The notes beneath the pieces are model-generated. The model was not told the origin of the DNA. It worked only from the letters and a program-made list of their open reading frames with translations, and ran no database searches. The translations under genes were made by a program, and so were the position numbers. Shown here piece by piece: positions 1 through 23,073 of a stretch of DNA of 24,954 nt (positions are counted from its first letter, which is position 1; each line of letters starts with the position of its first letter). Origin of the DNA: a virus (Duplodnaviria; Heunggongvirae; Uroviricota; Caudoviricetes); the IMG/VR virus record IMGVR_UViG_2706794665_000003. One strand, given 5' to 3'.

Positions 1-90
1 GAACAGGAGGGACAGCTGATAGAAACAGAAGCCACTGGAGCACCTCAAAAACACCATCATACACTAAATCAGTAAGTTGGCAGCATCACC
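1..90 (-). mobile_element. IS1 insertion sequence, terminal fragment; element continues beyond the window start
   Basis: Reverse complement of 1..90 matches the first 90 nt of IS1 as I recall it (GGTGATGCTGCCAACTTACTGATTTAGTGTATGATGG...), with the terminal inverted repeat at 68..90. Minus strand 35..1 reads GTG GCT TCT GTT TCT ATC AGC TGT CCC TCC TGT = (M)ASVSISCPSC, the InsA N-terminus. Confidence 0.85.
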
Positions 91-839
91 AGCCTTCTTG
101 AGGCTACCACCTGTTTTCAGGTGTCATTCAGACGTGATTTGCCCCAGATTGGGAAAGCACGCTTTTTTCTCAGCTATCGTCCTCTTATTTTGCCGTTACA
201 TTTCTTTTTGCATTCTAATGATTAATTTACAATAATAATATCGGTAATTATTGAGTAATAATAAATTAATTATTGCAAATGTAATTTAATTCCATCTTCG
301 CGTTATATTCCAATCTTTAATCTCCGCATGGAACAAGTTGCATGCGTGACTATATTAAGACGACTTATAACCACCAAAACATTTGCTTTGCAAGCAAAAA
401 CAGTGACCATTGACTCTAAGAAAATTCCGATCTATTGTTAGGGTCATCAAAGTTACTTAACAGTATTCCGAAATGAAAATACAAAGCAAGCTAATTGTCT
501 TATTAAACATTATTATTGCATTTATATTATTTGAGCTTTTAGCTCAAAAATTTGGTTTGAGTACATTATTTTAAAGCAAGATAAACAATATCGGGCACTC
601 TAGTTTTTATAATTAACAATTAAACGTCCATAAAATGTTATTTACTTTTCTTCGCTATTGTCATATCTTAATATAGTGGCTTACGCCACTCTACTTTCAT
701 CACATTTTGTACGTTTATGTACTCGCCATGAAGCTCTTTCATGGCGATTTTTTATTCTTAATCCAAGAACATACTCCCTACCTATAGCAAAATCACTTTT
801 TTAACAAAAGAATAACGTATTTAGGTAATCATTACGAAT
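91..839. other. AT-rich region with no ORF of 60 aa or more, between the IS1 end and the tfa stop
   Basis: Visibly low GC compared with the flanking phage genes; the six-frame track lists no ORF here; contains promoter-like hexamers, small ORFs and a plus-strand terminator-like hairpin. Confidence 0.6.
724..756 (+). terminator. Candidate intrinsic terminator for plus-strand transcription
   Basis: Perfect 9-bp inverted repeat CGCCATGAA (724..732) / TTCATGGCG (738..746) with 5-nt loop, followed by ATTTTTTATT (747..756). Confidence 0.5.
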
Positions 840-1421
840 TTACCCTATAGGTGCTACTGGCCATTCAATATCCGGTGCAGTTGATGTATCAACACGGTTC
901 AGCAACACCCGATACTTTTTCCAAGCTTCCAGCAACAAGGTTTCTTTCTCCGTTGCGATCTCCAGATCCACAGCATCCTGAAGCGGCGCTATATGCTCAC
1001 TGGCTACCTGCATCAGGCTGTTTTTTGTTTCTTCCGCCTCCCGGATCCGGAACAGTTTTTCTGCTTCCGTATCCTTCACCCAGGCTGTGCCGTTCCACTT
1101 CTGAAACTCCCCTTCCGGGGATAACCAGGTGACATTTTCCGGTAATGAGCCGAGTTCAGAAATAAATAACGCGTCGCCGGAAGCCACGTCATAAACCGTT
1201 TTACCCCGATGATCTTCAACGAGATGCCACGATGACTCATCACTGTTGAAAACAGCCACGAAACCAGCCGGAATATCTGGCGGTGCAATATCGGTACTGT
1301 TTGCAGGCAGACCTGTATGAGGCGGAATATATGCGTCACCTTCACCAATAAATTCATTAGTTCCGGCCAGCAGGTTATAAATTTTTATGGTCCGTGCTTG
1401 TTCACTCATTCTGAATGCCAT
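840..1421 (-). CDS. tfa: Tail fiber assembly protein Tfa
   Basis: 193-aa ORF; MAFRMSEQ...[34 protein letters not shown]... matches lambda Tfa as I recall it over nearly the full length. Start ATG overlaps the stf stop by 1 nt (TAATG). Confidence 0.93.
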
Positions 1422-4400
1422 TATGCGAGCCTCACAATATAGTTAAATGCGATGTTTTTGACGGTGTTTTCCGCGTTACCAGCAGCGTTAACGGTGATGG
1501 TGTGTCCATGTGAACCAATCGCAACAGAGTGCGTATGAGCACCAATACCGACAGTATGCGCGTGTGCACCCGCAGATGCTGCTGTGCCGGACAGTGAGTG
1601 TGTATGGTTTCCTTCTGAAGATGATTTACCTACCCATTGGGAGGTGCCACTGGTTAATGAGCCACTGATACCAACCTGATTAGTCCCGCTAACTTGAGTA
1701 CTCCCTGCCGGAAACATTCCAGTAGGTTGACTCCCGCTATTCGTTCTGGGCCCAGTCTGACTATGTTGGTGGGCCCCAGCTGAACTTGTAGAGCCGCTCA
1801 GACTGTGCGTATGCGCCCCGGTGTTATTCGTGGATTTAGTGCCGTAATCAAACGACGATGTGGTTTTCGTCCCCAAATCCGTACTGGATGCGCTGGCGCT
1901 GTGGGTGTGCGATTTAATGCCATCCTGTTCCTGAGACAATACGGCACGACCACTGGCGGGCTTGCCCTTAATCGTCCAGCCACGCATATCAGGGATCACG
2001 CCTGACGGATAAGCGGCTGCAAGTTTCGGGTAAGCAGATTTGTCAAAAGTCTGCCCCTGCATCAGGGCATAACCAGACGGAACGGTATCTGATGGCCACG
2101 GGATTGGTGCACCGACTGGATAAAACTCTGCAGGAGGATGAGCCGAGGTGTAAAGCTGCGCCCACGGCGACCAGTTTGCGTCGGTCGTATCCCGTCGTGA
2201 ACGAATAAATGCCGGAGCATGAGCACCGCTTGTACCACTCCAGCCGATGAGTAACTCACCTTCGCCAACGGCTGTCATCCCTTTCAGGTGAATGATATTT
2301 CCATACGCTGTTGGATATCCGTTGTTATACACCTCGTATAACTCAAGACCTGCTGCCCCCTGCGTATTGTCTGTCAGCGCGGCTACCCGACCTTTTGAAG
2401 CCAGATTAACTGATGATACTGCTGTTCCACCTGACGGTAGCGCCCCGATCTCTGATGCCGTTGGCTTATTTCTGGAGTTATAGTCCCTTCGCCAGCCAGG
2501 TGAATAATCTGTTCCGTGATTAATATAGGTAAACTGGGCGTTGGTTGTTCCGCCACCGCTGGATGTGGTCGGAGTGGTAATGCGGATCGTCATCGCTGAC
2601 TTTATCCCCATTACTTCAATGACAGCTCCGGCGAGATGAATATTACCGCAGCCAGTATCAGTAATGATTTTATTATTGCCATAAGACCAGGAACCCTTGC
2701 ACATCCAGTATGGATGGTTAAATGCTCCCTGAGAATCCAGCCACTCGATAAACTGTGCAGTCGTCCAGTTTCCTGTTGTTGTGCTTACTGACCCACCGAA
2801 GGCACGGCAGGCACCAATATTTTTCGTAAAGGTGTCTTTGCCAGGGATATCCGCACCGTTCTGATCTTTCTGCAGACGTTTCTCAGCATTGTCATTGGCT
2901 GCTTTTACTGCCTTTGGCGTTGCCGCCAGCGTTTCAGACGTGCTGTTGGTCGCGCTGCTTAGCTGGATTATCCCTTTCTGTGCTGTCGTTGCATCCTGTG
3001 CGGTGTATTTCCCGTTAGCCAGGTCATACGCGGCCTTAACGGCTTTTGGTGTTGCCGCCAGTGACTCGGAAGTGCTGTTAGTCGCACTACTGAGCTGTAC
3101 TATCCCCTTTTTCGTCGTGCTCGCATCCTCAAGCGCCACGGCGGATGCAATATCCTCTGCCCGTTTTGCCGCTGTCTCAGCGCGCGTTGCTGCAGATTCC
3201 GCCGTACTTTTGCTCTGAGCTGCTGCCGTCGCACTACCAGCAGCCTCTGTCGCCTTCGTGGATGCCGTCGTGGCGCTGCCCTTCGCTGCTGACGCCTGTC
3301 TGGTCGCCTCATCTTTTGAAGCAGACGCCGATGATGCCGATGACGCCGCCGAACTGGCGGACGATGCGGCAGCCGTTTTTGAGGATTCTGCACGGGTTTC
3401 CGACGCTTTCGCGTTCGTTTCGGATGTCTTCGCTGCGGAAGCTGACCTCGCTGCTGCCGTGGCCTGCTCAGTGGCTTCGCCAGCCTTCGTTGTGGCTGTT
3501 GAAGCGGATGATGCGGCGCTTTCTGCCGATTTTCCGGCGGCGGTGGCACTGGCTGAGGCCTGCCCGGCACTTGTTGACGCGGCGCTGGCAGACGACGCAG
3601 CCGCTGTTTTTGAGCCTGCCGCAGCTGAGGCACTCTGTCCCGCTGCCGTTTCAGAAGACCTGGCGTTCGTCTCGGACGTTTTGGCCGCCTTCGCAGAATT
3701 TGCAGCCGCCGTCGCCGAGGAAGCTGCGCTACTGGCGCTTGATGATGCGTTCGTTTCTGATGATTTTGCCGCCTCTTTTGAAGCCGACGCATCCCGGGCT
3801 GAGGTGGCAGCTTCTGACGCTTTCGTGGTCGCGGTGGATGCAGAAGTGGCTGCTGATTGTTGTGACGCTGCCGCATTCGTTTCTAACGTTTTCGCCGCAC
3901 CGGCACTGGTAGCCGCCGCGCTTTTTGAGGACTCTGCAGCGGCAGCACTTTTTGAGGCTTCAGTGGCCTTTGTTGATGCCGTTCCTGCGCTGGAAGACGC
4001 TGACTGAGCCGACGAAGCGGCCTGTCCGGCTGACGTGCTGGCTGCACGTGCTGAATCTGCAGCATCAGTCGCATGGGTTGCCGCCTCACGGGCTGATGTG
4101 CTGGCATCGCTGGCTGATTTCTTCGCGGCTGCCGTGTTCTGTGCCACCGCGGACGCGTTACGCGCCACCTCTTCCACCATCAGCTCAAAACGGCGCAGTG
4201 CCTCCGGACGGGCATCATCCTCCGTCATGGCACCGAGAAAATCATTNNNNNNNNNNNNNNNNNNNNNNNNNNNNNNNNNNNNNNNNNNNNNNNNNNNNNN
4301 NNNNNNNNNNNNNNNNNNNNNNNNNNNNNNNNNNNNNNNNNNNNNNNNNNNNNNNNNNNNNNNNNNNNNNNNNNNNNNNNNNNNNNNNNNNNNNNNNNNN

Positions 4401-4506
4401 NNNNNNNNNNNNNNNNNNNNNNNNNNNNNNNNNNNNNNNNNNNNNNNNNNNNNNNNNNNNNNNNNNNNNNNNNNNNNNNNNNNNNNNNNNNNNNNNTTAC
4501 TGCCAT
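1421..4506 (-). CDS. stf: Side tail fiber protein Stf, enlarged; N-terminal region interrupted by gap 4247..4496
   Basis: Start ATG GCA GTA A (minus 4506..4497) directly after the post-lom terminator, as in lambda (MAV...). After the gap: [15 protein letters not shown]..., a long Ala/Ser/Thr-rich shaft, [14 protein letters not shown] motif twice, and a His-x-His-rich C-terminus ...[31 protein letters not shown]. The track ORF start at 4549 reads through the terminator hairpin and is not the real start. Total length is not a multiple of 3, so the gap does not preserve length. Confidence 0.88.
4247..4496. other. N-run (assembly gap or mask) inside the stf 5' region
   Basis: 250 consecutive N. 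Confidence 1.
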
Positions 4507-4515
4507 ATTCACCCC

Positions 4516-4544
4516 ACAAAAAAGCCCGCCTGAACCGGCGGGCT
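4516..4544 (-). terminator. Intrinsic terminator downstream of lom
   Basis: 8-bp stem AGCCCGCC (4523..4530) / GGCGGGCT (4537..4544), loop TGAACC; on the minus strand the hairpin is followed by TTTTTTGTGGGG. Same arrangement as in lambda between lom and stf. Confidence 0.75.
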
Positions 4545-4570
4545 GTCATAACACTGTGTTACCTGGCTAA

Positions 4571-5067
4571 TCAGAATTTATAACCGACACCCACGATGAA
4601 ACCGTCAGTGCGCCAGAGACGTGTTGCTGTGGCGACCGTCATCACTTCCGGTCAGCACATCGTGCGTTTTCCCCTTATNNNNNNNNNNNNNNNNNNNNNN
4701 NNNNNNNNNNNNNNNNNNNNNNNNNNNNNNNNNNNNNNNNNNNNNNNNNNNNNNNNNNNNNNNNNNNNNNNNNNNNNNNNNNNNNNNNNNNNNNNNNNNN
4801 NNNNNNNNNNNNNNNNNNNNNNNNNNNNNNNNNNNNNNNNNNNNNNNNNNNNNNNNNNNNNNNNNNNNNNNNNNNNNNNNNNNNNNNNNNNNNNNNNNNN
4901 NNNNNNNNNNNNNNNNNNNNGTTCAGATCATCACTGCCGGGAACGTTGGTCCGGGCATGAAGATACCCCGCGCTCAGCGTGGACTGATGTTCAGACGCCC
5001 ATGCAGGCGCACCGGATACGGCCAGGCAAATGGCTGCGGACAAAATGGCTGCACAAACTTTACGCAT
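4571..5067 (-). CDS. lom: Lom outer-membrane protein (Ail/OmpX-like family), interrupted by gap 4679..4920
   Basis: N-terminus MRKVCAAILSAAICLAVSGAPAWA/SEHQSTLSAGYLHA has a signal peptide with an AxA cleavage site and matches lambda Lom. C-terminus after the gap ends ...GVGYKF-stop, an outer-membrane beta-barrel style terminal Phe. Shine-Dalgarno GAGAGG lies upstream of the ATG. Confidence 0.85.
4679..4920. other. N-run inside lom
   Basis: 242 consecutive N; the lom frame differs on the two sides. Confidence 1.
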
Positions 5068-5091
5068 AATTACCTCTCGCTTTTCTGCAAT

Positions 5092-5115
5092 AAAAAAGGC
5101 GTCATTCCTGACGCC
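5092..5115 (-). terminator. Intrinsic terminator between J and lom
   Basis: 7-bp stem GGCGTCA (5098..5104) / TGACGCC (5109..5115), loop TTCC; on the minus strand followed by a run of six T (5092..5097). Confidence 0.75.
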
Positions 5116-5137
5116 ATTTATTGGGGTTATAAATATT

Positions 5138-8100
5138 TCAACGAATACTGATGCCGGAAGCCGCTTTTTTGGTCACAATCACCGTACAGTCGGTGATATT
5201 GCCTGCCCCCTGATTGCCTTTCTGGAAAATCTTAAACTCCAGAGTGACGCTACCACCACCACTAGGCATATCAATAACTGCACTGTAACTACCGGGAATG
5301 GCACCTTTAGTTTCTCTGGATGCGATTAATACGCCGTTTTTGCGAACTTCAAAACCATAACCCGTGTATCGCGTGCCTCCTGGGTTATTTCCGCTCCCCG
5401 GATCGTCATACGCTATACCGTTAAAAATAATGGGCGGAATAATAATCTGGCGGTCAAAGTTATGATCATCGCTTATGGTGACTGTAACCGTCCCGTTTGG
5501 TGTTTCCGTGTTACCCCACGTACCAGCCTGTTTCGGAAATGATTTGGATACAGCTTTAACGAAGTCACCTCTGACCTGAGTCGCCTCCAGCATGCCCTTA
5601 ATCGTACAGTTTTCATTTACCGTGACATTGTTGAGCGTCCCGGCGTTCGCATTCACACTGCCACTGATATCCGCATTTTTAGCGGTCAGCTTTCCGTCCG
5701 GAGTCAGGGAAAATGCCGATGGATTTCCACCGCTGGTAATGGTGGGGGCCGTCAGGCGTTTCAGGAACACGTCGTTCATGAATATCTGATCGCCCTGACC
5801 AACAAACATCGGTTTTGTGTTGCCATTCGCAGGATTAACCATCGCAATCCTGTCCGCCGCCAGCAGCACCTGACTCTGCATGCCGTCAGGGGTGTTCTCA
5901 ATACCGGCACCAATACCCGCGATATAAAGGCGTCCGTCCTGCATCTGCTGCAGCTTCACAGCCCACATGCTGTTCAGGTTATTATTTGNNNNNNNNNNNN
6001 NNNNNNNNNNNNNNNNNNNNNNNNNNNNNNNNNNNNNNNNNNNNNNNNNNNNNNNNNNNNNNNNNNNNNNNNNNNNNNNNNNNNNNNNNNNNNNNNNNNN
6101 NNNNNNNNNNNNNNNNNNNNNNNNNNNNNNNNNNNNNNNNNNNNNNNNNNNNNNNNNNNNNNNNNNNNNNNNNNNNNNNNNNNNNNNNNNNNNNNNNNNN
6201 NNNNNNNNNNNNNNNNNNNNNNNNNNNNNNNNNCGGTGCGGCAATCCGGAACGATACCGACGCCGGATCGCCCTGCTGCCCCCACGCATTTACTGCCCGG
6301 ACTGTCAGCCTGTAGTTCCCCAGCGCCAGTTGTGTGAAGCGGTAAGTGGTTTCCGTCGTCCGGGCCGTGCTGACCAGCCGCTCACTGCCGTCATCCGCTG
6401 TTACGGTCAGACGGAGCAGGAAGCTCACGCCCTTCACCACCTTCGGCGTGTCCCAGCGCGCCAGCACCTGATATTCCCCGCTGTCTGCGGTGACTTCGGC
6501 AGTCAGGTGCTGCACCGCTGGCGGCGTGACACCATTCACCGTGCCGCTCTGGTCGCCGTCAAAGTGCGCCCCGTTATCCACGATGGCTTCTTTTTCCGGC
6601 ACATGCTGCACGGCGGTGATGGCATACGTGCCGTCGTCGTTCTCACGGATACTCACGCAGCGGAACAATCGCTGGTGCAGCGTCGGCAGCTTCAGCCCCC
6701 ACACGCTGTATTCAGCAACACCGTCAGGAACACGGCTCACTTTTACCTTCACGCCGTCGGTGACGGACTGGACCTCCACGCTGACCGGATTCCCCTGCCC
6801 GTCAACCAGGCTTATCAGCGTGGTGCCGGAGGATGGCAGCGTGATTTCACGGTCGAGCGTCAGCGTCCGGGTCTGGCTGTTCACCGCCAGCACGCGCCCG
6901 CCGGTGCGGATACCGGCATAGTCATCATCGCAGATTTCAATGACATCGCCCGGTACATGACGAAGCCCTTCAGCACCCACGCTGAAATCCACGGTCTGCG
7001 TCTCCAGCAGTTCCGTTTTAATCAGCCACAGCCCGGCGCGGTGTGCCTGCCCCCGGCTGGTACAGCCAAAGGCATCCATCTTCGTGACGTTACGACCGTA
7101 ACGGACAATGGCCTGCGTATCCTCCACAAGCTCTGTCGCCGTCTCCCAGCCGTTATCCGGGTCAATCCAGTTCACCTCAACGGCATTATGGCGGTCTTTC
7201 AGGGCGCTGAAACTGTAGCGGAACGGCGCGCCATCATCCGGCATCACCACATTACTGCGGTTATAGGCCCACACCTTATCCGACTGTCGGTCCTGCACGA
7301 ACGTCAGCGTCTGCCCGTTCCATACCGGCATACAGCGCATCGCCGAGCAGAAATCACTGAGCACATCCCACGCCTTGCGCTGTGTGGTCAGCCAGGCATT
7401 ACAGGTGATGCGCGGCTCCGTGCTGCCAAAGCCGTCCGGCACCGACTGGTCACAGTACTGGCCGATGACATACAGCGCCCATTTATCCACATCTGCCGCA
7501 CCAAGACGTTTCCCCATGCCATAGCGCGGATGGGTCAGCATATCCCACAGACACCAGGCCATGTTGTTGCTGTATGCCGGTTTTAACGTTCCGTCCCAGA
7601 TACCGCTGTATTGCCGCGTCTGCGGATTATAGTTCGACGGCACCTGCAGAATGCGCCCGCGAAGATGATAATTACGGCTCACCTGCTGGCTGCCGAACTG
7701 CTCCGAATCCACCTGTACGCCGACCAGTGCCGTGTTCGGGTAGCACTGTTTCACATCGATGATTTCGGTGTATGACGACCAGAGCGTTTTGTTCTGCAGC
7801 TGGTCTGTGGTGCTGTCCGGCGTCATTCTGCGCATCCGGATATTAAACGGGCGCGGCGGCAGGTTATCCACCACCACCGAGGCCAGATACTGCGAGGTGG
7901 TTTTGCCCTTAATGGTGATGTCTTTTTCCGTCACCCAGCCACCGTTACGCTGTATCTGAACCAGCAGGCGAACTTCAGACGGATTCCTGTCTCCCTTTGA
8001 GGTGGTTTCCACCAGTGCCTGTACACCGAAGGTAAAACGCAGTCGGTCAATGTTTGCCGACGTGATGGTCCGGGTGATCGGCGTGTCATATTTCACTTCC

Positions 8101-8375
8101 GTACCCAGCACCGTCTCGGAGCCGGAGGATTCAAATCCCTCCGGCGGTGACTGCTCCTGCTCACCTGCCCGGAACACCACCGTGACGCCGGAGATGTTGG
8201 TATTCCCCTCACTGTCCAGCACCGGCGTACTGTTCAGCAGCACGCTTTTTAATCCATCCACCGGACCTTCAACCGGCCCTTCGCTGATGGCATCGATCAC
8301 ACTCAGCAGCTGCGTGGACTTCAGGTTGTCCTTCGCTTCGCGCGGGGTATGCCCCTTACTGCTGCCTTTACCCAT
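5138..8375 (-). CDS. J: Tail tip / host specificity protein J, interrupted by gap 5989..6233
   Basis: N-terminal 797 aa (MGKGSSKGHTPREAKDNLKSTQLL...) near-identical to lambda gpJ as I recall it. The ORF after the gap continues with ...WAVKLQQMQDGRLYIAGIG...FMNDVFLKRLTAPTITSGGNP..., i.e. the J C-terminal region, with a diverged final ~150 aa. Frames differ across the gap. Confidence 0.92.
5989..6233. other. N-run inside J
   Basis: 245 consecutive N. Confidence 1.
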
Positions 8376-8435
8376 TCGTCATGCTCCATAAACGATAAAA
8401 CCGCCCGGAGGCGATTTCACATAAAACATTTTGCA

Positions 8436-9107
8436 TCAGCGACCAATCACCACAACCTGACCACCGTCCCCTTCGTCTGCCGTGCTGATCTCCTGAGATA
8501 CCACACGTGACCCCACGCGCATTTCACCATACAGAACAGGCATAACATTGCCCTGGGCAACCATGTTATCCAGTGAGGAGAAATAGGTGTTCTGCTTACC
8601 GTTATCCGTTGTCTGTGTGCGGGGAGTTCTGGCTTTCGGTGCCAGCATCTGAGCCACACCGCCGAGCACCATACTGGCACCGAGAGAAAACAGAATGCCG
8701 GTCATACCACCGGCACCAATGGCAGCCCCCCATGCTGCAAGGGTGGCTCCGGCGGTAAAGAATGATCCGGCAATGGCGGCTGCTCCCAGGACAATCTGGA
8801 ATACACCACCTGACTTGGCCCCGGCGACTCTGGGAACAATATGAATCACAGCGCCGTCAGGCAGAGCCTCATGTAACTGTGCCGTTAATCCGGACGTGCT
8901 AACATCCTGCCCGGCAATACGCACCTGATACCAGCCGTCGCTCAGCTTCTGACGAAACGCAGGGAGCTGTGTGGCCATCGCCCGGATGGCTTCGGCACCC
9001 GTTTTCACACGAAGGTCGATGCGGCGGCCAAATCGTTGCAAATCCCCGTAAAGGCAGATGCGTGCCATGCCCGGTGACGCCAGAGGGAGTGTGTGCGTCG
9101 CTGCCAT
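8436..9107 (-). CDS. I: Tail assembly protein I
   Basis: 223-aa ORF MAATHTLPLASPGMARICLYGDLQRFGRRIDLRVKTGAEAIRAM..., near-identical to lambda gpI; 60-nt spacer before the J start as in lambda. Confidence 0.95.
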   Translation of the reverse strand: MAATHTLPLASPGMARICLYGDLQRFGRRIDLRVKTGAEAIRAMATQLPAFRQKLSDGWYQVRIAGQDVSTSGLTAQLHEALPDGAVIHIVPRVAGAKSGGVFQIVLGAAAIAGSFFTAGATLAAWGAAIGAGGMTGILFSLGASMVLGGVAQMLAPKARTPRTQTTDNGKQNTYFSSLDNMVAQGNVMPVLYGEMRVGSRVVSQEISTADEGDGGQVVVIGR

Positions 9108-9757
9108 TTGTCGGTATNNNNNNNNNNNNNNNNNNNNNNNNNNNNNNNNNNNNNNNNNNNNNNNNNNNNNNNNNNNNNNNNNNNNNNNNNNNNNNNNNNN
9201 NNNNNNNNNNNNNNNNNNNNNNNNNNNNNNNNNNNNNNNNNNNNNNNNNNNNNNNNNNNNNNNNNNNNNNNNNNNNNNNNNNNNNNNNNNNNNNNNNNNN
9301 NNNNNNNNNNNNNNNNNNNNNNNNNNNNNNNNNNNNNNNNNNNNNNNNNNNNNNNNNNNNNNNNNNNATGGTAAGCATCCCGGAACAGCGTGTAACAGTC
9401 CGTCACCCCGTGCTCAAAGCGCCGCCCGGTAAGATGTGGCACACAGCGGAACTTGTGAATCGCCCCCCGGCAGACCAGCCACCACGGCAAATCACTCTGC
9501 ACCTGCAGCCGCCGGTCGGCCTCACTCAGCCAGGGCAGACCACCGGGGTGGCTGTGGACCAGTGCCACAATCTCACCCTGCATCTCTGCCTGCAGCCAGT
9601 CTTCCGGCGACATACGGAAATACGCCTCCGGCTCACCGGAGATATTCACGCAGGGGAAATATCTTTCCCCCTCCGGCGTTCTTACCACGAAGCCGCACGA
9701 CTCCGCTGGAGCACATCGCCGGGCGTGCGCCAGAATCGCTGATTCTGTCTCTGTCAT
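9005..9757 (-). CDS. K: Tail assembly protein K (MPN/JAB plus NlpC/P60-like), central part in gap 9118..9367
   Basis: N-terminus MTETESAILAHARRCAPAESCGFVV...HSHPGG (JAMM-like HSH motif) ...DCYTLF (NlpC/P60-type Cys); C-terminus after the gap ...AFTGICNDLAAASTFV. 3' end overlaps the I start by 103 nt. True length is uncertain because of the gap. Confidence 0.85.
   Translation of the reverse strand: MTETESAILAHARRCAPAESCGFVVRTPEGERYFPCVNISGEPEAYFRMSPEDWLQAEMQGEIVALVHSHPGGLPWLSEADRRLQVQSDLPWWLVCRGAIHKFRCVPHLTGRRFEHGVTDCYTLFRDAYHXXXXXXXXXXXXXXXXXXXXXXXXXXXXXXXXXXXXXXXXXXXXXXXXXXXXXXXXXXXXXXXXXXXXXXXXXXXXXXXXXXXXTDKWQRRTHSLWRHRAWHASAFTGICNDLAAASTFV
9118..9367. other. N-run inside K
   Basis: 250 consecutive N. 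Confidence 1.
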
Positions 9758-9762
9758 GGGAT

Positions 9763-10461
9763 TTACTGCGAAAGTTTGTTAATGGAAAGGAAGCCGCCAA
9801 AGTTGCCGACGTTATTGCGAAACTTACAGCCACTCAGGCATTTGCTGCATTTATCCTTCGTGATGTCGGACGTTGGCTGGTCATATTCATCCGCGACCGC
9901 CGGACCGTGATAACCGCACTCATCGCCGCGATAGGTCCAGGTGCAGGTGTTGGCCAGCATGATACGTCCCGGAAAAACAGCGCCATCTGTTTCCGTCGGC
10001 GTGGACAGTACAAAAGAGGCACTCACCGCGCTCAGTTCGCTGCACTGCTCAATGCGCCAGCGGCTGATCACCTCCTGCTCCGGATCGGCGTCACTGTTTC
10101 CGTTGACGAAGTTCACCGCATCCAGAAAACGGGCGTAAACCTTACGCCGGACCACCGTTCCGCCGACCAGACTCTGTAGATCTTCCGCCATCCCGGTGAC
10201 CATACCGTACAGGTTAGAAACCATCAGCGTGGGGCGCGTACTGGTGCCTTTGCCATTCAGTTCAAAACCACTCCCCTGAATGGGATACGGCTGATACTGT
10301 CGCCCCTGCCAGGTGACCGGCTCACCTTTTTCGTTCTGCTCATTACAGAAAAAATAACGTTCTCCACCGACCTCTGTCAGATCGATTTCCCAGAGCACCA
10401 CGCTGGCCGACTGCTCCGCACGGGTGCATTCATTCAGTGTTTCCTGCCGGATATCCTGCAT
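9763..10461 (-). CDS. L: Minor tail protein L
   Basis: 232-aa ORF MQDIRQETLNECTRAEQSASVVLWEIDLTEVGGERYFFCNEQNEKGEPVTWQGRQYQPYPIQGSGFELNGKG... matches lambda gpL; same length as lambda L. Confidence 0.95.
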   Translation of the reverse strand: MQDIRQETLNECTRAEQSASVVLWEIDLTEVGGERYFFCNEQNEKGEPVTWQGRQYQPYPIQGSGFELNGKGTSTRPTLMVSNLYGMVTGMAEDLQSLVGGTVVRRKVYARFLDAVNFVNGNSDADPEQEVISRWRIEQCSELSAVSASFVLSTPTETDGAVFPGRIMLANTCTWTYRGDECGYHGPAVADEYDQPTSDITKDKCSKCLSGCKFRNNVGNFGGFLSINKLSQ

Positions 10462-10790
10462 CAGTTCACCACCTGTTCAAACTCTGCGCTGAACTCAACA
10501 CGCAGCATACTGACCCGCGACGACCATTTTGCGCAGGTCACCTTTATCTGCCGCCACTCATAAGGCGGCGTCCACAGAAAGGCTTTCCAGCCCCCGTGCT
10601 CTTCCAGAAACGACTCCAGTACCATGGCCTCCTCACGGGGGACAGAAAGCGTCACGCTGTACGTTTTCAGGTTGGCATTCAGCCCGGCAGGCGCTCGCTG
10701 GGAATAGCCATCACCAAAGCGCACCTTTCTTACAGAAGGGGCCGAAGCCACATCCATACCGGGTTTCACTTTCCAGCGGAAGGTTTTCAT
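10461..10790 (-). CDS. M: Minor tail protein M
   Basis: 109-aa ORF MKTFRWKVKPGMDVASAPSVRKVRFGDGYSQRAPAGLNANLKTYSV... matches lambda gpM; shares position 10461 with the L start (overlapping start/stop). Confidence 0.95.
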   Translation of the reverse strand: MKTFRWKVKPGMDVASAPSVRKVRFGDGYSQRAPAGLNANLKTYSVTLSVPREEAMVLESFLEEHGGWKAFLWTPPYEWRQIKVTCAKWSSRVSMLRVEFSAEFEQVVN

Positions 10791-13348
10791 CGTCCACCTC
10801 CGGAGAACAGGCCACCATCACGCATCTGTGTCTGAATTTCATCACGGGCACCCTTGCGGGCCATGTCATACACGGCCTTCATCATCTGTGGACCTGGCAG
10901 ACCATTCGTACCGTCGTTCTGAATCACCACGTGATTGTTCTGATTAAAATTAATGCCTTCAGCCCGCCGCATCTGCGCCGGACTTCCGGCACCGCCCACA
11001 TAACCACCTTCCGCATAGCCGCGCATCAGCCGGTAGAGATTCCCCACGCCAATCCGGCTGGTTGCCTCCTTCGTGAAGACAAATTCACCACGGTGAACAA
11101 TCCCCGCTGGCTCATATTTGCCGCCGGTTCCCGTAAATCCCCCGGTTGCAAAATGGAATTTCACCGCAGCGGCCTGAATGGCTGTACCACCTGACGCGGA
11201 TGCGCCGCCACCAACAGCCCCGCCAATGGCGCTGCCGATACTCCCGACAATCCCCACCATTGCCTGCTTAAGCAGAATTTCTGTCATCATGGACAGCACG
11301 GAGCGGGTGAAGCTGCGCCAGTTCTGTTCACTGCCGGTCAGCATCGCCGCCATATTCTGTGCAATACCATCAAAGGTCTGCGTGGCTGCACTTTTAACCT
11401 GTGACATACTGTCCGTGGCGCTCTCTTCCCACTCACTCCAGCCGGACTTCAGGCCTGCCATCCAGCTCCCGCGAAGCTGGTCTTCAGCCGCCCAGGTCTT
11501 TTTCTGCTCTGACATGACGTTATTCAGCGCCAGAGGATTATCGCCATACTGTTCCTTCAGGCGCTGTTCCGTGGCTTCCCGCGCTGCCTGCCGGTCAGTC
11601 AGCCCCCGGTTTTTCGCATCAATGGCTGCCCGTTTTGCCCGTTGCTGCTGTGCGAATTTATCCGCCTGCTGCGCCAGCGCATTCAGGTGCTCCTGATACG
11701 TAACCTTGTCACCAAGTGCAGCCAGCTGGCGTTTGTACTCCAGCGTCTCGTCTTTATGCGCCAGCAGGGATTTCTCCTGTGCGGACAGCTGGCGACGTTG
11801 TGCCGCCTCCTCCAGTACCGCGAACTGACTTTCTGCCTTCCACAAATCCCGGCGCTGCTGGCTGATTTTCTCATTCGCTCCGGCATGCTTCTCCAGCGTC
11901 CGGAGTTCTGCCTGAAGCGTCAGCAGGGCCGCATGAGCACTGTCTTCCTGACGATCGCCCGCATACACCTTCACGCCGGACTGTTTCGGCTTTTTCAGCG
12001 TCGCTTCATAATCCTTTTTCGCCGCCGCCATCAGCGTGTTGTAATCTGCCTGCAGGATTTTTCCGTCTTTCAGTGCCTTGTTCAGTTCTTCCTGACGGGC
12101 GGTATATTTCTCCAGCGGCGTCTGCAGCCGTTCGTAAGCCTTCTGCGCCTCTTCGGTATATTTCAGCCGTGACGCTTCGGTATCGCTCTGCTGCTGCGCA
12201 TTTTTGTCCTGTTGACGCTGTTGATCTACCCTCTTTTGGGCTGCATCCCGCTCCAGGCGTTTTTTTTCACGATCATCCCAGTAACGCGCCCGTGCTTCAT
12301 CGTTAACGAAATAATCATCCTTGCGCAGATTCCAGATGTCGTCTGCTTTCTTAAACGCAGCCTCTGCCTTAATCAGCATCTCCTGCGCGGTATCAGGACG
12401 ACCAATATCCAGCACCGCATCCCACATGGATTTGAATGCACGTGCAGTCCTGTCTGCCCAGGTCTCCAGCGTGCCCATGTTCTCTTTCAGGCGGCGGGTC
12501 TGGTCATCAAACCCTTTCGTTGCGGCCTCGTTCGCCGCCTGCAATGCCCCGGCTTCATCGCCGGAACGCTGCAACTGAGCAACATACGCAATCTGCTCCG
12601 CCGTCACGTTATGGAACTGGCGTGCCATCGCCGTCAGCCCCGACGTCGGGTCTGTGGTCAGCTTCCCGAAGGCTTCAGCGACCTTGTCCACCTCCACGCC
12701 GGATGCATAGGAGAAACGCGCCACACTCTGGCTGATGGACGCAATCTGAGCCTCACCGCTTACCCCCGCCTTAACCAGTGCGCTGAGTGACTCGCTGGTC
12801 TGGTTAAACGTCAGCCCTGCCGCCTGCCCGGCTCTGGACAGGACCAGCATACGATCTGCCGTCAGTCCCGCCTGATTACCGGAAAGGACCAGCGTTTTGT
12901 TGAAATCGGACAGGGTTGAGTTGCCCTGATACCAGGCATACGCCAGCGCACCGGTCGCCACCGCCAGCGAGGTGGCCCCCACCATCGGCAGGGTGATCGC
13001 GCCGGCAAGCCCCCTGAACATGGGGATCATCCCGCCGAAGGAGTCCTTAACCTGACCACCCTGTTGCAGCAGGATCAGCCAGGGATTCTGCCCCCCTGCA
13101 AGCTGCGTGGCCACGTCGGTGAACTGTGCAGGCAGCATACGCATGGCGGCTTTATACTGCCCGACGGAAATCCCCGCTTTCTGTGCAGCCAGCGCCTGTC
13201 GGCTCAGCGACTGTTCAACGACTGCCGCTGTTTTTTTCGCATCACTTTCCGTACCGGAAAAATGACGCCTGACTCTGGCCATCTGCTCGTCAAATCTGGC
13301 CGCATCCAGACTCAAATCAACGACCAGATCGCCTACCGGTTCAGCCAT
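10787..13348 (-). CDS. H: Tail tape measure protein H
   Basis: 853-aa ORF MAEPVGDLVVDLSLDAARFDEQMARVRRHF... with coiled-coil rich central region; same length as lambda gpH; 4-nt overlap with M. Confidence 0.95.
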   Translation of the reverse strand: MAEPVGDLVVDLSLDAARFDEQMARVRRHFSGTESDAKKTAAVVEQSLSRQALAAQKAGISVGQYKAAMRMLPAQFTDVATQLAGGQNPWLILLQQGGQVKDSFGGMIPMFRGLAGAITLPMVGATSLAVATGALAYAWYQGNSTLSDFNKTLVLSGNQAGLTADRMLVLSRAGQAAGLTFNQTSESLSALVKAGVSGEAQIASISQSVARFSYASGVEVDKVAEAFGKLTTDPTSGLTAMARQFHNVTAEQIAYVAQLQRSGDEAGALQAANEAATKGFDDQTRRLKENMGTLETWADRTARAFKSMWDAVLDIGRPDTAQEMLIKAEAAFKKADDIWNLRKDDYFVNDEARARYWDDREKKRLERDAAQKRVDQQRQQDKNAQQQSDTEASRLKYTEEAQKAYERLQTPLEKYTARQEELNKALKDGKILQADYNTLMAAAKKDYEATLKKPKQSGVKVYAGDRQEDSAHAALLTLQAELRTLEKHAGANEKISQQRRDLWKAESQFAVLEEAAQRRQLSAQEKSLLAHKDETLEYKRQLAALGDKVTYQEHLNALAQQADKFAQQQRAKRAAIDAKNRGLTDRQAAREATEQRLKEQYGDNPLALNNVMSEQKKTWAAEDQLRGSWMAGLKSGWSEWEESATDSMSQVKSAATQTFDGIAQNMAAMLTGSEQNWRSFTRSVLSMMTEILLKQAMVGIVGSIGSAIGGAVGGGASASGGTAIQAAAVKFHFATGGFTGTGGKYEPAGIVHRGEFVFTKEATSRIGVGNLYRLMRGYAEGGYVGGAGSPAQMRRAEGINFNQNNHVVIQNDGTNGLPGPQMMKAVYDMARKGARDEIQTQMRDGGLFSGGGR

Positions 13349-14179
13349 ACCGGACTCCTCCTGCGATCCCTTCTGATACTGTCATCAGCATTACGTCATC
13401 CTCCGTCATGTCCGCCACATCCGGGGAAGCGGGGATAACTTCATTCCCGTCCGGGCCAAAGCGGACACCTCCGGCAAGCCCTGCCGCTTTCTGCATCAGC
13501 ACATCATCTTCAGGCTCTTCGTCAGCCTCGCGCCGGTTCAGCAGACTGAAATCCAGCGGATGCATCTCCGGATCGCTGAAAAACAGGCTGAGCACGGTGT
13601 ACGTCAGCCCGGAAAAGTGCATATCCAGCAGAACATCATGAAAATAATGGGTACTGTAAAAGCGGTGCCAGTCGGCATACTCCGTGGATGACATCCCGGC
13701 AAGCATGGCGCGCCAGTCGGGTCGCCCCATCTCACGCGCCAGTTTCAGGGCAAAACTCAGCTCACCGTCGAACACTTTCCCGCAGAAACAGGCTCTGCAG
13801 GCCCGGCGTCCTCTGCCTGTTCAGGAGCATCATTCACCACAAACTCATACATACCGGACAGCCGGTACACCACGTTTTCAGCATGAGAAATTGCCTCTGT
13901 GGGCCAGGTGGTAAGCACTTCCTGCTCAATCTGTTTAACGGCTTCATTCATGGACGGCATCTGCGTCTTCTTCGGATGGTTATGCCACAGGGACATCGCA
14001 ACCACAAAAGCGCCGGTTCTGATGGCGTCTTCCACAGTAAACTTCCGGTTGCTGTCTGACTCCGCCTGTTCTGCCTGCCGTTTCATCAGGTCGAGATGCT
14101 CAATACGCTGCAGGGCTGACAGTTCAGAAAGCGTGACGGTCACACCGTTATGTTCAAATGATTCGGTTTTCAGGAACAT
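13341..14179 (-). CDS. T: Tail assembly chaperone G-T fusion, made by programmed -1 ribosomal frameshift at 13775..13781
   Basis: The -1 frame from the slippery site reads ...GK-VFDGELSFALKLAREMGRPDWRAMLAGMSSTEYADWHRFYSTHYFHDV..., the lambda gpT sequence, ending at 13341 and overlapping the H start. Confidence 0.85.
13757..14179 (-). CDS. G: Tail assembly chaperone G
   Basis: 140-aa ORF MFLKTESFEHNGVTVTLSELSALQRIEHLDLMKRQAEQAE... ending ...PVSAGKCSTVS; matches lambda gpG. Confidence 0.93.
   Translation of the reverse strand: MFLKTESFEHNGVTVTLSELSALQRIEHLDLMKRQAEQAESDSNRKFTVEDAIRTGAFVVAMSLWHNHPKKTQMPSMNEAVKQIEQEVLTTWPTEAISHAENVVYRLSGMYEFVVNDAPEQAEDAGPAEPVSAGKCSTVS
13775..13781 (-). promoter_or_regulatory. 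Slippery heptamer G GGA AAG for the G-T -1 frameshift
   Basis: Plus strand CTTTCCC at 13775..13781 = minus strand GGGAAAG, in frame with G as G-GGA-AAG, about 6 codons before the G stop. Confidence 0.85.
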
Positions 14180-14194
14180 CGCTGACTCTCCGGA

Positions 14195-14935
14195 TTAACT
14201 GGCGGTGACGTTGATTTCTGCAACCGCAGCAAACTCACCATTACCAGATACGACCGGAATGTTGACCTTGCCTGCAGCAACACCTTTCACGGTGATGGTC
14301 ATACCACTGACCGACACGGTGGCTTTTGTTTTATCCGCAGACACCGCACGGAAGCTCTTGTCGGTTGCGCCATCCGGCTGGAATGCCACGGTCAGCGTGG
14401 TGCTCTGCCCTTTCACTACGGAAGCACTGGCGGGTGTCACCGTCATGCCGGTCGTCGCCGTCACCGTGCTGCGATCTTCTGCCATCGACGGACGTCCCAC
14501 ATTGGTGACCTTCACCGTGCGGGTAATCACCTCCTTCGCCGTCACCGCCTTACCGATACTGCTGACCCAGCCACGGAACACATCGACCGTGCCGTTCGGG
14601 AAGCGGATTTTATAGGCACGGGTATCACCTTCATTAAACCACGCCAGCAGCGCCTGCTGCCCCTGCTCTCCGGGCATCCACGCCAGCGTGAAGCTGGTAT
14701 CTCCGGCAGATTTCTGCCCCTGCCCGGTCGCAGTCCAGTCTGCATCTTCATCATCGAGATAGCTGTCGTCATAGGACTCAGCGGTCAGTTCGCCGGGCGT
14801 CAGGTCTTTAACTTTTGCCAGACGCGACCAGTCAACGTCTGAAAGCGGGTTCGCATAAGGGTCACCGCTCCCCTTATAAACCCACAGGGTGGTCCCGGCA
14901 CCTTTCACCGGCATTGTAGGATTTGGTACAGGCAT
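14195..14935 (-). CDS. V: Major tail tube protein V
   Basis: [44 protein letters not shown]... matches lambda gpV (246 aa). Start chosen at the Met equivalent to the lambda start; the track ORF extends 10 codons further upstream. Confidence 0.93.
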
Positions 14936-14942
14936 AGCGTCC

Positions 14943-15338
14943 TCACATTTCATAGATAATGACATAAGTCAGATCGGCTGAACTCCACAGGCCCGCATCA
15001 TCGTCGCGCCGGTAGTCATAGCCGCTGGCCACCATACTGGTGATCAAATCTGACAGTGCCGGGATATCGCTCATCACAGGATAAATCCGGGACTCCATCC
15101 ACGAATCCAGCTCTGAATCCGGCACCTGAGCAGGCAGGAAAACTTCAATATGCAGCTCCGCCTGCCAGGTATCGCTGTCCAGCTCTTCGCCCGTGTATTC
15201 AGCGCCGGTGAGATAAACGGCAATTGCCGGAAAATCTTCCTCATCAAAAACAGCGGGGCGACCATCAAAAAGCGTCGCCCCGGTGTCATGCTTCTCCAGT
15301 GCATCCAGTACGGCTGCACGGAGTTCAGTATGTTTCAT
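14943..15338 (-). CDS. U: Tail terminator protein U
   Basis: 131-aa [55 protein letters not shown]... matches lambda gpU. Confidence 0.95.
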
Positions 15339-15913
15339 CGCTTTATTACCATTCTCAGTTGATGCTGCAGCGCATAGCCCAGCTCTTTCGGAAGACGTTC
15401 ACGCCGTATCCGTTCAATATTCTGTTTAAACGCCGTGGTCAGCGGCACCGCCATCGGGATTTTCACCACATCAATGGGGTAACGGTTTTTCCCGGCCACA
15501 CGCTGCATAACATGCCACCGGCCGTTTTTCAGTTGCTGAATAAACGCGCCGGGAATACGACGGTTACCCACCACAAGCACGCTGCCGCCACCTTTCAGGG
15601 ATGAACGCTGCCCCTTTTTATGACGCCTGCGGCGGGACAGGACAACCCGCGCATTACCCAGCTTGATTACGGGCAAATCCCCCCGGTTAACTTTGATTCT
15701 GGCCTGCGGATTTTTGACCGTGGCCCTTTTCAGCCTGGCCCTTTCCTTTACCAGTTTCCGGCGTACCTTTGTCTCACGGGCAACCTGTGACGCAGACTGC
15801 GATATCGCGGATGAAGCAACGCGGTTAATGGCCATTGCGGCGGCACCGGGCACCGCCGTTTTGCTGATACGGCTGAGGTTTTCAACGGCCTGCTCAAGAC
15901 CTTTTATGGCCAT
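15335..15913 (-). CDS. Z: Tail completion protein Z
   Basis: 192-aa ORF MAIKGLEQAVENLSRISKTAVPGAAAMAINRVASSAISQSA... matches lambda gpZ; 4-nt overlap with U. Confidence 0.95.
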   Translation of the reverse strand: MAIKGLEQAVENLSRISKTAVPGAAAMAINRVASSAISQSASQVARETKVRRKLVKERARLKRATVKNPQARIKVNRGDLPVIKLGNARVVLSRRRRHKKGQRSSLKGGGSVLVVGNRRIPGAFIQQLKNGRWHVMQRVAGKNRYPIDVVKIPMAVPLTTAFKQNIERIRRERLPKELGYALQHQLRMVIKR

Positions 15914-15924
15914 ACATCCCCCTT

Positions 15925-16278
15925 TCAGCGGCGACGGTTAACGGCAGGCGGTACGCCCCGTCCAAGCCAGAGATGACAACTTCCGCCATCATCCGGCGAA
16001 ACCCGATCTACCCAGAAATTTTCCTCACCGATGGTCAGCGTGTCTCCACGCCGCAGCTGCCGCACCTCATCAGTCCGGACAAACAGGGACGGGCTGGAGC
16101 CTTCAACGCGCACGCCCTGTCCGGCATAGCTGATATTTTCAGGGTCATCAAAAACACCACGTATCACCGCACCTGACTGCTCACCGGATGTCATGGTGGC
16201 TGACGTTCCCATGTACCCGCGTATCGTTTCATCGGCGCGGGCAATGGCAGCATCGAACAGGTTATCGAAATCAGCCAC
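15925..16278 (-). CDS. FII: Head-tail connector (head completion) protein FII
   Basis: 117-aa ORF MADFDNLFDAAIARADETIRGYMGTSATMTSGEQSGAVIRGVFDDPENISYAGQGVRVEG... matches lambda gpFII. Confidence 0.95.
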   Translation of the reverse strand: MADFDNLFDAAIARADETIRGYMGTSATMTSGEQSGAVIRGVFDDPENISYAGQGVRVEGSSPSLFVRTDEVRQLRRGDTLTIGEENFWVDRVSPDDGGSCHLWLGRGVPPAVNRRR

Positions 16279-16289
16279 AGCGCCTCCCG

Positions 16290-16688
16290 TTATTGCATTC
16301 TGGCCAGGCCGCGCTCTGTCATTTCGGCTGCCACACCGGCAGAGACACGAAACGCCGTTCCCGGCAGCACAAATGCCACAGGTTTATCCCGCGTGGCGTG
16401 AAGTGCATCAGTATGCAGCGTCACCAGTGCCACGACCGTGACCAGTTCAGCCGTATCCTGAATCACGGTATCCGGCTGCGCTGATACCACCTCATTTTCA
16501 TGCCCGGTCAGCACATTTTCCCGGCTGAGAGGGGTGTCCTGACCGGCAGTTTCATCCGTGTCATCAAGCTCTTCTTCCAGCTCTGCCACACGAAGCGCCA
16601 GTTCTTCTTTCGTTCCCGTCAAACTGACATCGCGGTTCAATTGCTCACCCAGCTCCTGAAGACGGGCAATCAGTTCATCTTTCGTCAT
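16290..16688 (-). CDS. FI: DNA packaging / head assembly protein FI
   Basis: MTKDELIARLQELGEQLNRDVSLTGTKEELALRVAELEEELDDTDE... matches lambda gpFI (132 aa). Start set at the Met preceded by GGAGGAG; the track ORF extends 13 codons upstream through the E-FI hairpin. Confidence 0.92.
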   Translation of the reverse strand: MTKDELIARLQELGEQLNRDVSLTGTKEELALRVAELEEELDDTDETAGQDTPLSRENVLTGHENEVVSAQPDTVIQDTAELVTVVALVTLHTDALHATRDKPVAFVLPGTAFRVSAGVAAEMTERGLARMQ

Positions 16689-16710
16689 GAACTCCTCCAC
16701 AGAGAGAAAA

Positions 16711-16726
16711 TGGCCCCGAAGGGCCA
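16711..16726 (-). terminator. Stem-loop between E and FI (possible attenuator)
   Basis: TGGCCC-CGAA-GGGCCA, 6-bp stem with tetraloop, immediately after the E stop (16730..16732); on the minus strand followed by TTTTCTCTCTG and the FI ribosome binding site. Confidence 0.45.
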
Positions 16727-16729
16727 TGA

Positions 16730-17755
16730 TTACGCCAGTTGAACGGACACGAACTCATCAGGATCAGCCAGCAGCATCAGCGGTGCTGACTGAATCATGG
16801 TGAACTCACGCGCCGGATCGCCGGTGGTCACCCAGTTTTTCGGGTAACGGGCAGAAGCGTTAATGCCTTCGCGCTGTGCGTCCGCATCCTGAATGCAGCC
16901 ATAGGTGCGCAGACCGCGAGCCTGAGTGTTCCCCAGCACCATCGTGTTGTCCGGCAGGAAGTTCTTTTTGACGCCGTTTTCCACGTACTGTCCGGAATAC
17001 ACGACGATGGCCACATCGCCATACATTCCCTTATAGGACACCGCTTTGCCCAGGTCTTTTACCGCTGTCTCCAGCTCGGAATGAGAGCCGCGACGGGTAT
17101 CCAGCTTCTCCTTGACGGCTTTGAAGGAACGGAACAGCGCCCAGCCTTTCGGGTCAAACACGATGATATTCACCACACCGCTGGCGTTCAGCGCGTAGGC
17201 TTCGATATCGTCGGTCGGGTCATACGTGGACTTGTCACGCTTGCTCCACTCCGTGACGCCGGACTGTGTGATGTTGTTCGCCGCACTGCGGCCCATATCC
17301 ACCTCAACCGGATCGAAGGCTTCACCGGTCATGGTGTATTTGCCCTTGAGCACGGCAGAAACTGCCTGCATCTCTTCGACCTGAGCAATGGCCAGCTCTT
17401 CGTCACGCATGTTCTGCATGATGATGCGACGGCGGCGGTAAGCCGGGTCCGCCAGATTCTGCGGATCTTCATCCGGCAGGCGACGCAGGGTCATCTGCGG
17501 ATTCACCTCATGCTTGGGTTTGACATATCCCGGCGTAAATTCAGAGGTGGAGCCGCCACGGGAACGGATAACCTCACCGGAAACAATCGGCGAAACGTAC
17601 AGCGCCATGTTTACCAGTCCCGGAATTTGTGAGAGATAGACTTTCTCCGTAGTGAAGGGATAGCTCTCACGGAAAAAGAGACGCAGAAACAGCGGATCAA
17701 ACTTAAATTTCTGCTCATTTGCCGCCAGCAGCTGGGCGGTTGTGTACATCGACAT
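16730..17755 (-). CDS. E: Major capsid protein E
   Basis: MSMYTTAQLLAANEQKFKFDPLFLRLFFRESYPFTTEKVYLSQIPGLVNMALYVSPIVSGEVIRSRGG... matches lambda gpE (341 aa). Start set at the lambda-equivalent Met; the track ORF extends 9 codons upstream. Confidence 0.95.
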   Translation of the reverse strand: MSMYTTAQLLAANEQKFKFDPLFLRLFFRESYPFTTEKVYLSQIPGLVNMALYVSPIVSGEVIRSRGGSTSEFTPGYVKPKHEVNPQMTLRRLPDEDPQNLADPAYRRRRIIMQNMRDEELAIAQVEEMQAVSAVLKGKYTMTGEAFDPVEVDMGRSAANNITQSGVTEWSKRDKSTYDPTDDIEAYALNASGVVNIIVFDPKGWALFRSFKAVKEKLDTRRGSHSELETAVKDLGKAVSYKGMYGDVAIVVYSGQYVENGVKKNFLPDNTMVLGNTQARGLRTYGCIQDADAQREGINASARYPKNWVTTGDPAREFTMIQSAPLMLLADPDEFVSVQLA

Positions 17756-17810
17756 AAAAAAATCCCGTAAAAAAAGCCACACAGGCGGCCTTTAGTGATG
17801 AAGGGTAAAG

Positions 17811-18143
17811 TTAAACGATGCTGATTGCCGTTCCGGCAAACACGGTCCGTTTTTTCGTCTCGTCGCTGGCAGCCTCCGGCCAGAGCACATCCTCATAACG
17901 GAACGTGCCGGACTTGTAGAACGTCAGTGTGGTGCTGGTCTGGTCAGCAGCAACCGCAAGAATGCCAACGGCAGCACCGTCGGTGGTGCCATCCCACGCA
18001 ACCAGCTTACGGGTGGAGGTGTCCAGCATCAGCGGGGTCATTGCAGGCGCTTTCGCACTCAATCCGCCGGGCGCGGTTGCGGTATGAGCCGGGTCACTAT
18101 TGCCCAGCGGCTGGTAATGGGTAAAGGTTTCTTTGCTCGTCAT
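17811..18143 (-). CDS. D: Capsid decoration protein D
   Basis: [100 protein letters not shown]... matches lambda gpD (110 aa). Confidence 0.95.
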
Positions 18144-18152
18144 AAACATCCC

Positions 18153-18758: not shown

Positions 18759-19452
18759 CCGGGACTGCAATGTTTCCCGGACATCATCCGGTAGATGGCT
18801 GTAGGGGTTGCCATCCACCTTATGGCTGCCGCTGTAAATCAGCGTGATTTCCACGCCCTGTTTCTCCAGTGCAGCGCCGTAATTACTGTGAGCCATCATG
18901 ACGCCGATGGAGCCTGTCCGGGCGGTCTGCGTGACCAGACGCCGGGAGGCGGCACTGGCAAGCAGCTGACCTGCGCTGCAGTTCATGTCATTGGCCAGCG
19001 CCCATACCGGCTTTATGTCACGCACACGGGCGATGATGTCAGCGCAGTCAAATGCTCCCGCCACCATTCCGCCCGGTGTGTCCATATCGAGCAGAATGCC
19101 GTCCACCATCGGGTCGCTGGCAGCCTGTTGCAGACGGGCGATAATGCCGTTGTAACCGGTCATCCCCGAGTACGGCTGCAGCGCCCGCGTCCGGCTGACC
19201 AGCGTGCCGGACACCGGCAGCACGGCGATGCCGTTCATTACCTGATAACTGCGGGCCTGTCGTGGTCCGTCATCATCACCGGATAACGCCAGCGCCGCGG
19301 GTGCCTCTCCGGCAGTCAGGCTGTCGCCGGATACTGCATCCGTCAGGCAGCTGATCCCAAGCTGGCCTGCAAGCGCACAAAAGAAAACCCGCGCATAGGC
19401 GGGTTCAAGCATCAGCGGCTCATTAAAAGCCATGCTGGCAATATGCGGGAGA

Positions 19453-19472: not shown

Positions 19473-23073
<3,601 letters not shown>

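Follow-up and report, generated by a model that had tools for sequence, protein, structure and literature searches.

The window analysed here is the whole of a 24,954-nucleotide stretch of viral DNA (Caudoviricetes; IMG/VR record IMGVR_UViG_2706794665_000003), and its tail gene cluster raises the question of what kind of receptor-binding domain (RBD) ends the J protein of this phage and which porin it would recognize. That lambdoid phages exchange host-range modules at the C-terminus of J is textbook knowledge, and work with the h434 allele goes back to the 1960s. A first-pass annotation had described the J of the window as almost lambda up to a hinge, followed by a diverged form of the lambda LamB-binding domain, and had proposed the use of a different receptor or of a LamB variant.

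The position of J in the tail cluster is that found in lambda, after H-M-L-K-I and before lom-stf-tfa, and the order is colinear in both the open reading frames (ORFs) of the window and the genes called in an unmasked twin locus (L007, described below); gene I (8436-9107) flanks J on one side, and lom, stf and tfa lie on the other. In Pfam, the visible parts of J matched FNIII-A_GpJ, Phage-tail_3, Ig_J, Phage_Tail_Tip and Ig_GpJ_C, both parts scoring well over the curated cut-offs, and the complete J domain set, including Ig_J_second, was recorded for the unmasked twin protein. By its domain architecture, its cluster position and the fold of its RBD, the product of this gene is a lambda-like tip attachment protein J. 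Its parts are arranged as follows:

5138..8375, minus strand: gene J, tip attachment protein or central tail fibre, delimited by ORFs and Pfam domains (start at 8375, stop codon at 5138-5140)
6234..8375, minus strand: J residues 1-714, hub and first FNIII/Ig domains, common to lambda, 434 and 21
5989..6233: mask of 245 N inside J, standing for 505 bases of the unmasked twin, that is, J residues 715-882 plus one base
5807..5988, minus strand: J residues 884-943, visible end of a phage-21-type shaft, recognized by protein identity and DNA windows
5633..5806, minus strand: conserved hinge or beta-prism fibre end, FMNDVFLKRLTAPTITSGGNP...TAKNADISGSVNAN, 83-98% identical across all J types compared
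5141..5632, minus strand: 434-type RBD, J residues 1002-1165, an Ig-like beta-sandwich that ends at the stop codon 5138-5140

Five runs of N interrupt the window, at 4247-4496 (250), 4679-4920 (242), 5989-6233 (245), 9118-9367 (250) and 21718-21879 (162). The twin locus (CP023645.1 1260987-1281658) was found among public assemblies through the exact product of gene I, and belongs to GCA_002442535.1, the assembly of Shigella sonnei CFSAN030807 (PMC11594029). It contains no N and, over the unmasked stretches compared (window positions 1 to 19116), is 100% identical to the window except for a single mismatch in 9749 bases. For the four runs of N that were comparable with this locus, the real bases underneath numbered 248 (4247-4496), 262 (4679-4920), 505 (5989-6233) and 241 (9118-9367). 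ORF frames and gene lengths across the runs of N are unreliable in the window, where J and stf both appear frameshifted or mis-started. As the 245-N mask does not preserve length, it breaks J in the window into two ORFs whose frames differ; on this ground we rejected a genuine frameshift. The J of the twin is intact: in S. sonnei CFSAN030807 it is a single ORF of 1165 aa (L007:10733-14230), and the full 1165-aa ORF is also present in a third assembly. The integrity of J is thus that of the twin locus, whereas the window itself carries the 245 masked positions. In the indexed assembly collection, 605 blocks contain the exact gpI protein, which implies that this prophage family is widespread.

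Comparison of the 1165-aa protein with other J proteins in 40-residue windows revealed blocks of different affinity. Over residues 1-714 the protein has 97% identity to lambda gpJ (695/714) and, window by window, 95-100% to lambda, 434 and 21; up to about residue 800 the identity stays at 90-100%, without distinction between these three phages. From about 800 to 960 it is 98% to phage 21 and 12-75% to lambda and 434, and the visible end of this shaft (5807-5988) is 100% identical to phi458, 97% to phage 21 and 53-55% to lambda and 434. The shaft block (window 5807-5988 plus the masked stretch; L007:13130-13610) constitutes a second mosaic block in J, corresponding to the alpha-helical shaft or upper fibre, and accounts for a J of 1165 aa as compared with 1132. 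The view that J is almost lambda up to the hinge was therefore correct for residues 1-714 and did not hold for 5807-5988, which at 53% identity to lambda is phage-21-like. The hinge, FMNDVFLKRL...NADISGSVNAN, which in this division of the protein takes up residues 961-1000, is 93% identical to that of lambda, and it is within this segment that the identity crosses from the 21-type to the 434-type, both in 40-residue protein windows and in 60-base DNA windows. Beyond it, residues 1001-1165 are 88-100% identical to 434 and 20-52% to lambda and 21. The breakpoints are sharp in protein and DNA windows alike, and the hinge is likely a recombination junction between J modules. At the same junction, lambda aa 964, Brödel et al. 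joined the C-terminal parts of natural gpJ proteins to lambda J and obtained working chimeras, including OmpC-targeting particles (PMC11338833). Judged by these alignments, J is a mosaic of four blocks, namely a common N-terminal part, a phage-21-type shaft, the hinge and a 434-type RBD. The J of phi458 has the same combination of a 21-type shaft with a 434-type RBD.

The C-terminal 282 aa (window 5141-5986) aligned with lambda residues 856-1131 at 52% identity overall, a homology beyond chance (BLASTP E = 3e-92), and this identity was very uneven. Over the last 164 aa it is 37.5% (63/168 aligned columns) and over the last 150 aa 35%; the first-pass annotation was right that the last ~150 residues are only partly similar to the LamB-binding domain, and the alignment placed them clearly below the 90% identity to lambda gpJ which that annotation had set against its own view. 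In Pfam, the C-terminal part matched Phage_Tail_Tip (E = 1e-29) and Ig_GpJ_C (E = 3e-26), the latter defined as 'Tip attachment protein J, C-terminal receptor binding domain'. When lambda and lambdoid J proteins from reference phages with known receptors were aligned, as the annotation had proposed, the best match was phage 434, with a gap-free identity of 94.5% (155/164), followed by lambda h434 imm21 (94%, 154/164), phi330/A8 (42%) and phage 21 (39%). When 50,697 phage records were searched by tblastn with the 164-aa C-terminal stretch, 74 of the records matched at >=90% and another 169 below 60%, lambda being among the latter with 37.9%, and none in between. The upper group includes Evi, 2B8, ev207, Ayreon, mEp460, Tritos, phi458, cdtI and many Stx1- and Stx2-converting phages. 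This bimodal distribution, with its gap from 60 to 90%, implies that the RBD belongs to a discrete allele class and is not a drifted lambda domain.

The high, gap-free identity over the whole RBD places it in the 434-type (h434) class. It falls outside the lambda-type LamB-binding RBDs, as shown by the 37.5% identity and by indels in all four loop regions, and outside the A8/phi330/phage-21 type, which has other loops and another C-terminal tail. Between lambda and 434, 101 of the 124 differing alignment columns of J lie within lambda residues 986-1132, so that the classical h434 host-range difference maps to the RBD. Two candidates for comparison were discarded: phi330 as an experimental proxy for this RBD, given an identity of just 42-44%, and the gpJ variants A8 and 1A2 (PMC11338833 supplement, machine-read with errors), which are clearly of other RBD types, A8 being of the phi330 type. 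By sequence class, then, the RBD of the window is the long-known phage 434/h434-type module; the class was already known, and the mosaic is already present in sequenced phages. What had been called a diverged lambda domain is better described as a discrete, common allele that would have been acquired by recombination at the hinge.

An AlphaFold2 model of the 164-aa RBD was all-beta, with a mean pLDDT of 76.8 and a pTM of 0.71. Structure prediction had been suggested along with the original annotation, and the model matched the solved gpJ RBDs: its top four Foldseek matches in the PDB were 9wca, 9wcb, 8xck and 8xcj (TM 0.70-0.72, E about 1e-13), and the matches that followed were about nine orders of magnitude weaker, so that the model assigns the C-terminal domain to the gpJ RBD fold. 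The nearest solved chains by sequence were likewise those of the A8 gpJ chimera (9wca/9wcb, E = 5e-94) and of lambda gpJ (8xcj/8xck, E = 3e-85); 9wcb represents the open state of A8 gpJ bound to OmpC of E. coli EDL933, and 8xcj is lambda gpJ with LamB. The entries 9wca and 9wcb, which hold the engineered A8 gpJ fibre alone and with OmpC, were released in January 2026, and a literature search for a paper describing them found none. Among the PDB sequence and fold matches there was no solved structure of a 434-type RBD.

Alignment with lambda located four indel sites in the RBD, at S1012, S1049, A1077 and D1107 in a lambda numbering derived from the alignment. Lambda positions 1012, 1049, 1077 and 1107 are the four indel hotspots reported for natural J homologues, and 1012 and 1107 are the key sites at which lambda gained the use of OmpF (PMC6646904). 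From the indel positions in the alignments, the AlphaFold2 model and these hotspots, two putative receptor-contact loops were placed:

5492..5536, minus strand: putative contact loop L1, J about 1034-1048, FPKQAGTWGNTETPN, with a 2-residue insertion relative to lambda at S1012
5198..5227, minus strand: putative contact loop L4, J about 1137-1146, FQKGNQGAGN, with a deletion relative to lambda at D1107

In the AlphaFold2 model, L1 is a loop between strands. The motifs DDHxFDRQ, DMPxGxG and KKxxxGIS are kept in all RBD types and lie outside the four indel loops; they presumably form the non-contact, trimer-proximal side of the domain.

Of 5426 complete E. coli genomes, 2114 carry the 495-base DNA of the RBD, in almost every case at 90-99% identity and in as many as seven copies per genome; the 434-type RBD is among the commonest J alleles. 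A scan of genome contigs for exact matches to a 70-nt pattern from the RBD returned no match. A search for homologous proteins gave mainly partial J fragments, which were used to describe the polymorphism within the class and for the AlphaFold2 alignment; their taxonomic reach was E. coli, E. albertii and S. sonnei, the species in which protein fragments 93-99% identical to the RBD are recorded. Nine residues differ from 434, at J positions 1006, 1008, 1032, 1036, 1037, 1047, 1136, 1138 and 1143, and seven of them are in or beside L1 and L4 as placed above. All nine are recurrent polymorphisms of the class, the same states being found in P0001-P0017, phi458 and MB56. Among the 14 class members compared, 36 of the 164 RBD positions vary. 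The common variants, present in at least 4 of the 14 members, are at 1006 and 1008, just past the hinge, at 1127, and at 1032-1047, 1077 and 1136-1143, these last three sets adjoining three of the four indel sites.

OmpC is the receptor of phage 434 and is also bound by lambda once its J has been replaced by that of 434 (PMC3509688, PMC11101478); it has further been given as the target of the 434 central fibre (PMC12502783). The identity of 94-95% between the RBD of the window and those of 434 and lambda h434 indicates that the porin recognized is most likely OmpC and not LamB. Since a few substitutions can change the porin used, and nine residues differ from 434, we hold the probability of this prediction, which is made from sequence, at about 0.85. 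The earlier proposal that the C-terminal domain sets the host range and that the receptor is probably not that of lambda was supported in so far as the RBD is of the 434/h434 type; the LamB variant that it also offered became much less likely. For the nearest phages (phi458, cdtI, Ayreon, mEp460, ev243, mEp332 and the PhiR phages), no receptor data were found in the literature, and a receptor-prediction preprint of 2026 concerns the gpJ of Drexlerviridae, not lambdoid J.

How such a domain would work can be proposed from lambda, whose RBD is an Ig-like domain that tips a trimeric fibre and inserts four bottom loops, L1-L4, into LamB; on binding the loops spread, and the change travels up the fibre and opens the tail (PMC11101478). 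In the phage of the window, the 3' 495 bases of J encode a 434-type RBD, which would have been joined by recombination at the hinge to a recipient J with a phage-21-like shaft and the N-terminal part common to lambda, 434 and 21. By homology to lambda gpJ and to the A8 gpJ chimera, J would form trimers whose three C-terminal Ig-like domains make up the tip of the central fibre. The four variable bottom loops of these domains would enter a trimeric porin at its extracellular mouth; on binding the loops would spread, and the change would pass up the fibre so that the tail tip opens for DNA ejection.

The named systems differ from the window in separable respects. The J of 434 (OL657226) and that of lambda h434 imm21 (OM418627) share with it the RBD length, the hinge, the AGNITDCTVIVTKKAASGISIR tail and the J-lom-stf order; the nine or ten substitutions in the RBD are mostly near L1 and L4, and the shaft from about 800 to 960 is phage-21-type in the window and lambda-type in 434, whose J has 1137 aa against 1165. 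The J of phi458 (OP434518) also has 1165 aa, and its identity to that of the window is 100% over the visible shaft end, 98% over the hinge and 97% over the RBD. The combination of a 21-type shaft with a 434-type RBD occurs as well in cdtI and in many Stx1/Stx2-converting and ECOR-derived lambdoid phages; phi458, cdtI and their relatives differ from the window in a few loop polymorphisms, such as D/S at 1077, G/R at 1127 and IFQ..G versus VFH..R in L4. The RBD of lambda gpJ in complex with LamB (8XCJ, 8XCK) belongs to the same Ig_GpJ_C family and fold (TM 0.70-0.71), with a hinge that is 93% identical; in lambda it is the tip of a trimeric fibre with four bottom loops on a trimeric porin, an arrangement predicted for the window phage as well, whereas the RBD identity is 37.5%, indels affect all four loops, and the receptor is LamB as compared with a predicted OmpC. 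The closest solved structure, both by sequence (5e-94 over the C-terminal 282 aa) and by fold (TM 0.72), is that of the A8 gpJ chimera/phi330 J (9WCA, 9WCB); A8 gpJ/phi330 is OmpC-dependent by experiment, and A8 was grafted at the same hinge, but its RBD is of a different class with other loops, 42-44% identical to that of the window and nearer to phage 21 (81%) than to 434.

Other readings of this locus have to be weighed against an OmpC-dependent, 434-type RBD. The RBD might be 434-like in sequence and yet, through substitutions in its loops, recognize LamB or a variant of it, or a further porin such as OmpF. Phage 21 natively uses LamB and phi330, as established by knockout and complementation, uses OmpC (PMC11336670, PMC12502783), even though their RBDs are 81% identical; a single J mutation opens OmpC to phage 21 (PMC11336670), single J mutations alter the porin used by lambda too, and the clustering of seven of the nine differences near L1 and L4 would fit such a switch. 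Nevertheless, at 94-95% identity the RBD is far closer to 434 and h434 than phage 21 and phi330 are to each other, the variant residues all recur inside the class, and the RBD has neither indels relative to 434 nor the lambda-type loops; we consider a switch of this kind improbable. That the C-terminus is the lambda LamB-binding domain, diverged gradually by point mutation, hardly seems credible: the two domains do share the Ig_GpJ_C family and the three core motifs, but the identity to lambda falls sharply at the hinge, from 93% to below 40%, just where that to 434 climbs to 88-100%, the block upstream comes from a third source, phage 21, and the identities found among phages leave the space between 60% and 90% empty.

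It could also be argued that J is a dead remnant in a cryptic prophage, its domain being without current function, given that the lom next to it in the unmasked twin is cut down to 160 aa, that an IS1 abuts tfa, and that J seems split in two frames in the window. This split is an artefact of the mask, though: S. sonnei CFSAN030807 and the third assembly both have J as a complete ORF of 1165 aa. The ORF list is unbroken from upstream of portal to tfa, and widespread intact copies share 99% identity with the allele, all of which makes this explanation very improbable.

The genes next to J have features of their own. In the twin, lom (window 4605-5067, minus strand; L007:14301-14783) has 160 aa, where lambda, 434 and E. 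coli MB56 have 199-206; near its 3' end it lacks about 77 bases of MB56, with the junction at window 4611-4616, and the public annotation calls no gene there, so lom is probably truncated or a pseudogene. An IS1A-family element, from window position 1 to about 770, directly adjoins tfa (840-1421); some E. coli genomes have this IS1-tfa junction too, at 99.5% identity. The side-tail-fibre gene stf (1421-4506, minus strand), which is frameshifted in laboratory lambda, is here an unbroken ORF of about 1027 aa, and its product has a very long, repetitive middle rich in Ala, Ser and Thr and a His-rich tip of the GAHTHS type. The Stf of Ur-lambda binds OmpC, and hence the J and Stf of the window phage might target the same porin.

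The variants beside the putative contact loops L1 (1032, 1036, 1037 and 1047) and L4 (1136, 1138 and 1143) might tune the RBD to particular OmpC alleles, for instance that of Shigella sonnei. We regard this idea as doubtful; if it were true, the 434-type class would consist of natural OmpC-variant specialists shuffled by recombination inside the domain.

In summary, the 3' end of J in this phage represents an ordinary and very common module swap, and as such brings little new biology. Its use lies in annotation, as the J of this Shigella sonnei/E. coli prophage family would be described as having a 434-type RBD, predicted to be OmpC-dependent, and not as lambda-like and LamB-dependent. Furthermore, the hinge appears to be a natural junction for swapping RBDs, one that is also exploited for retargeting lambda-based delivery particles.
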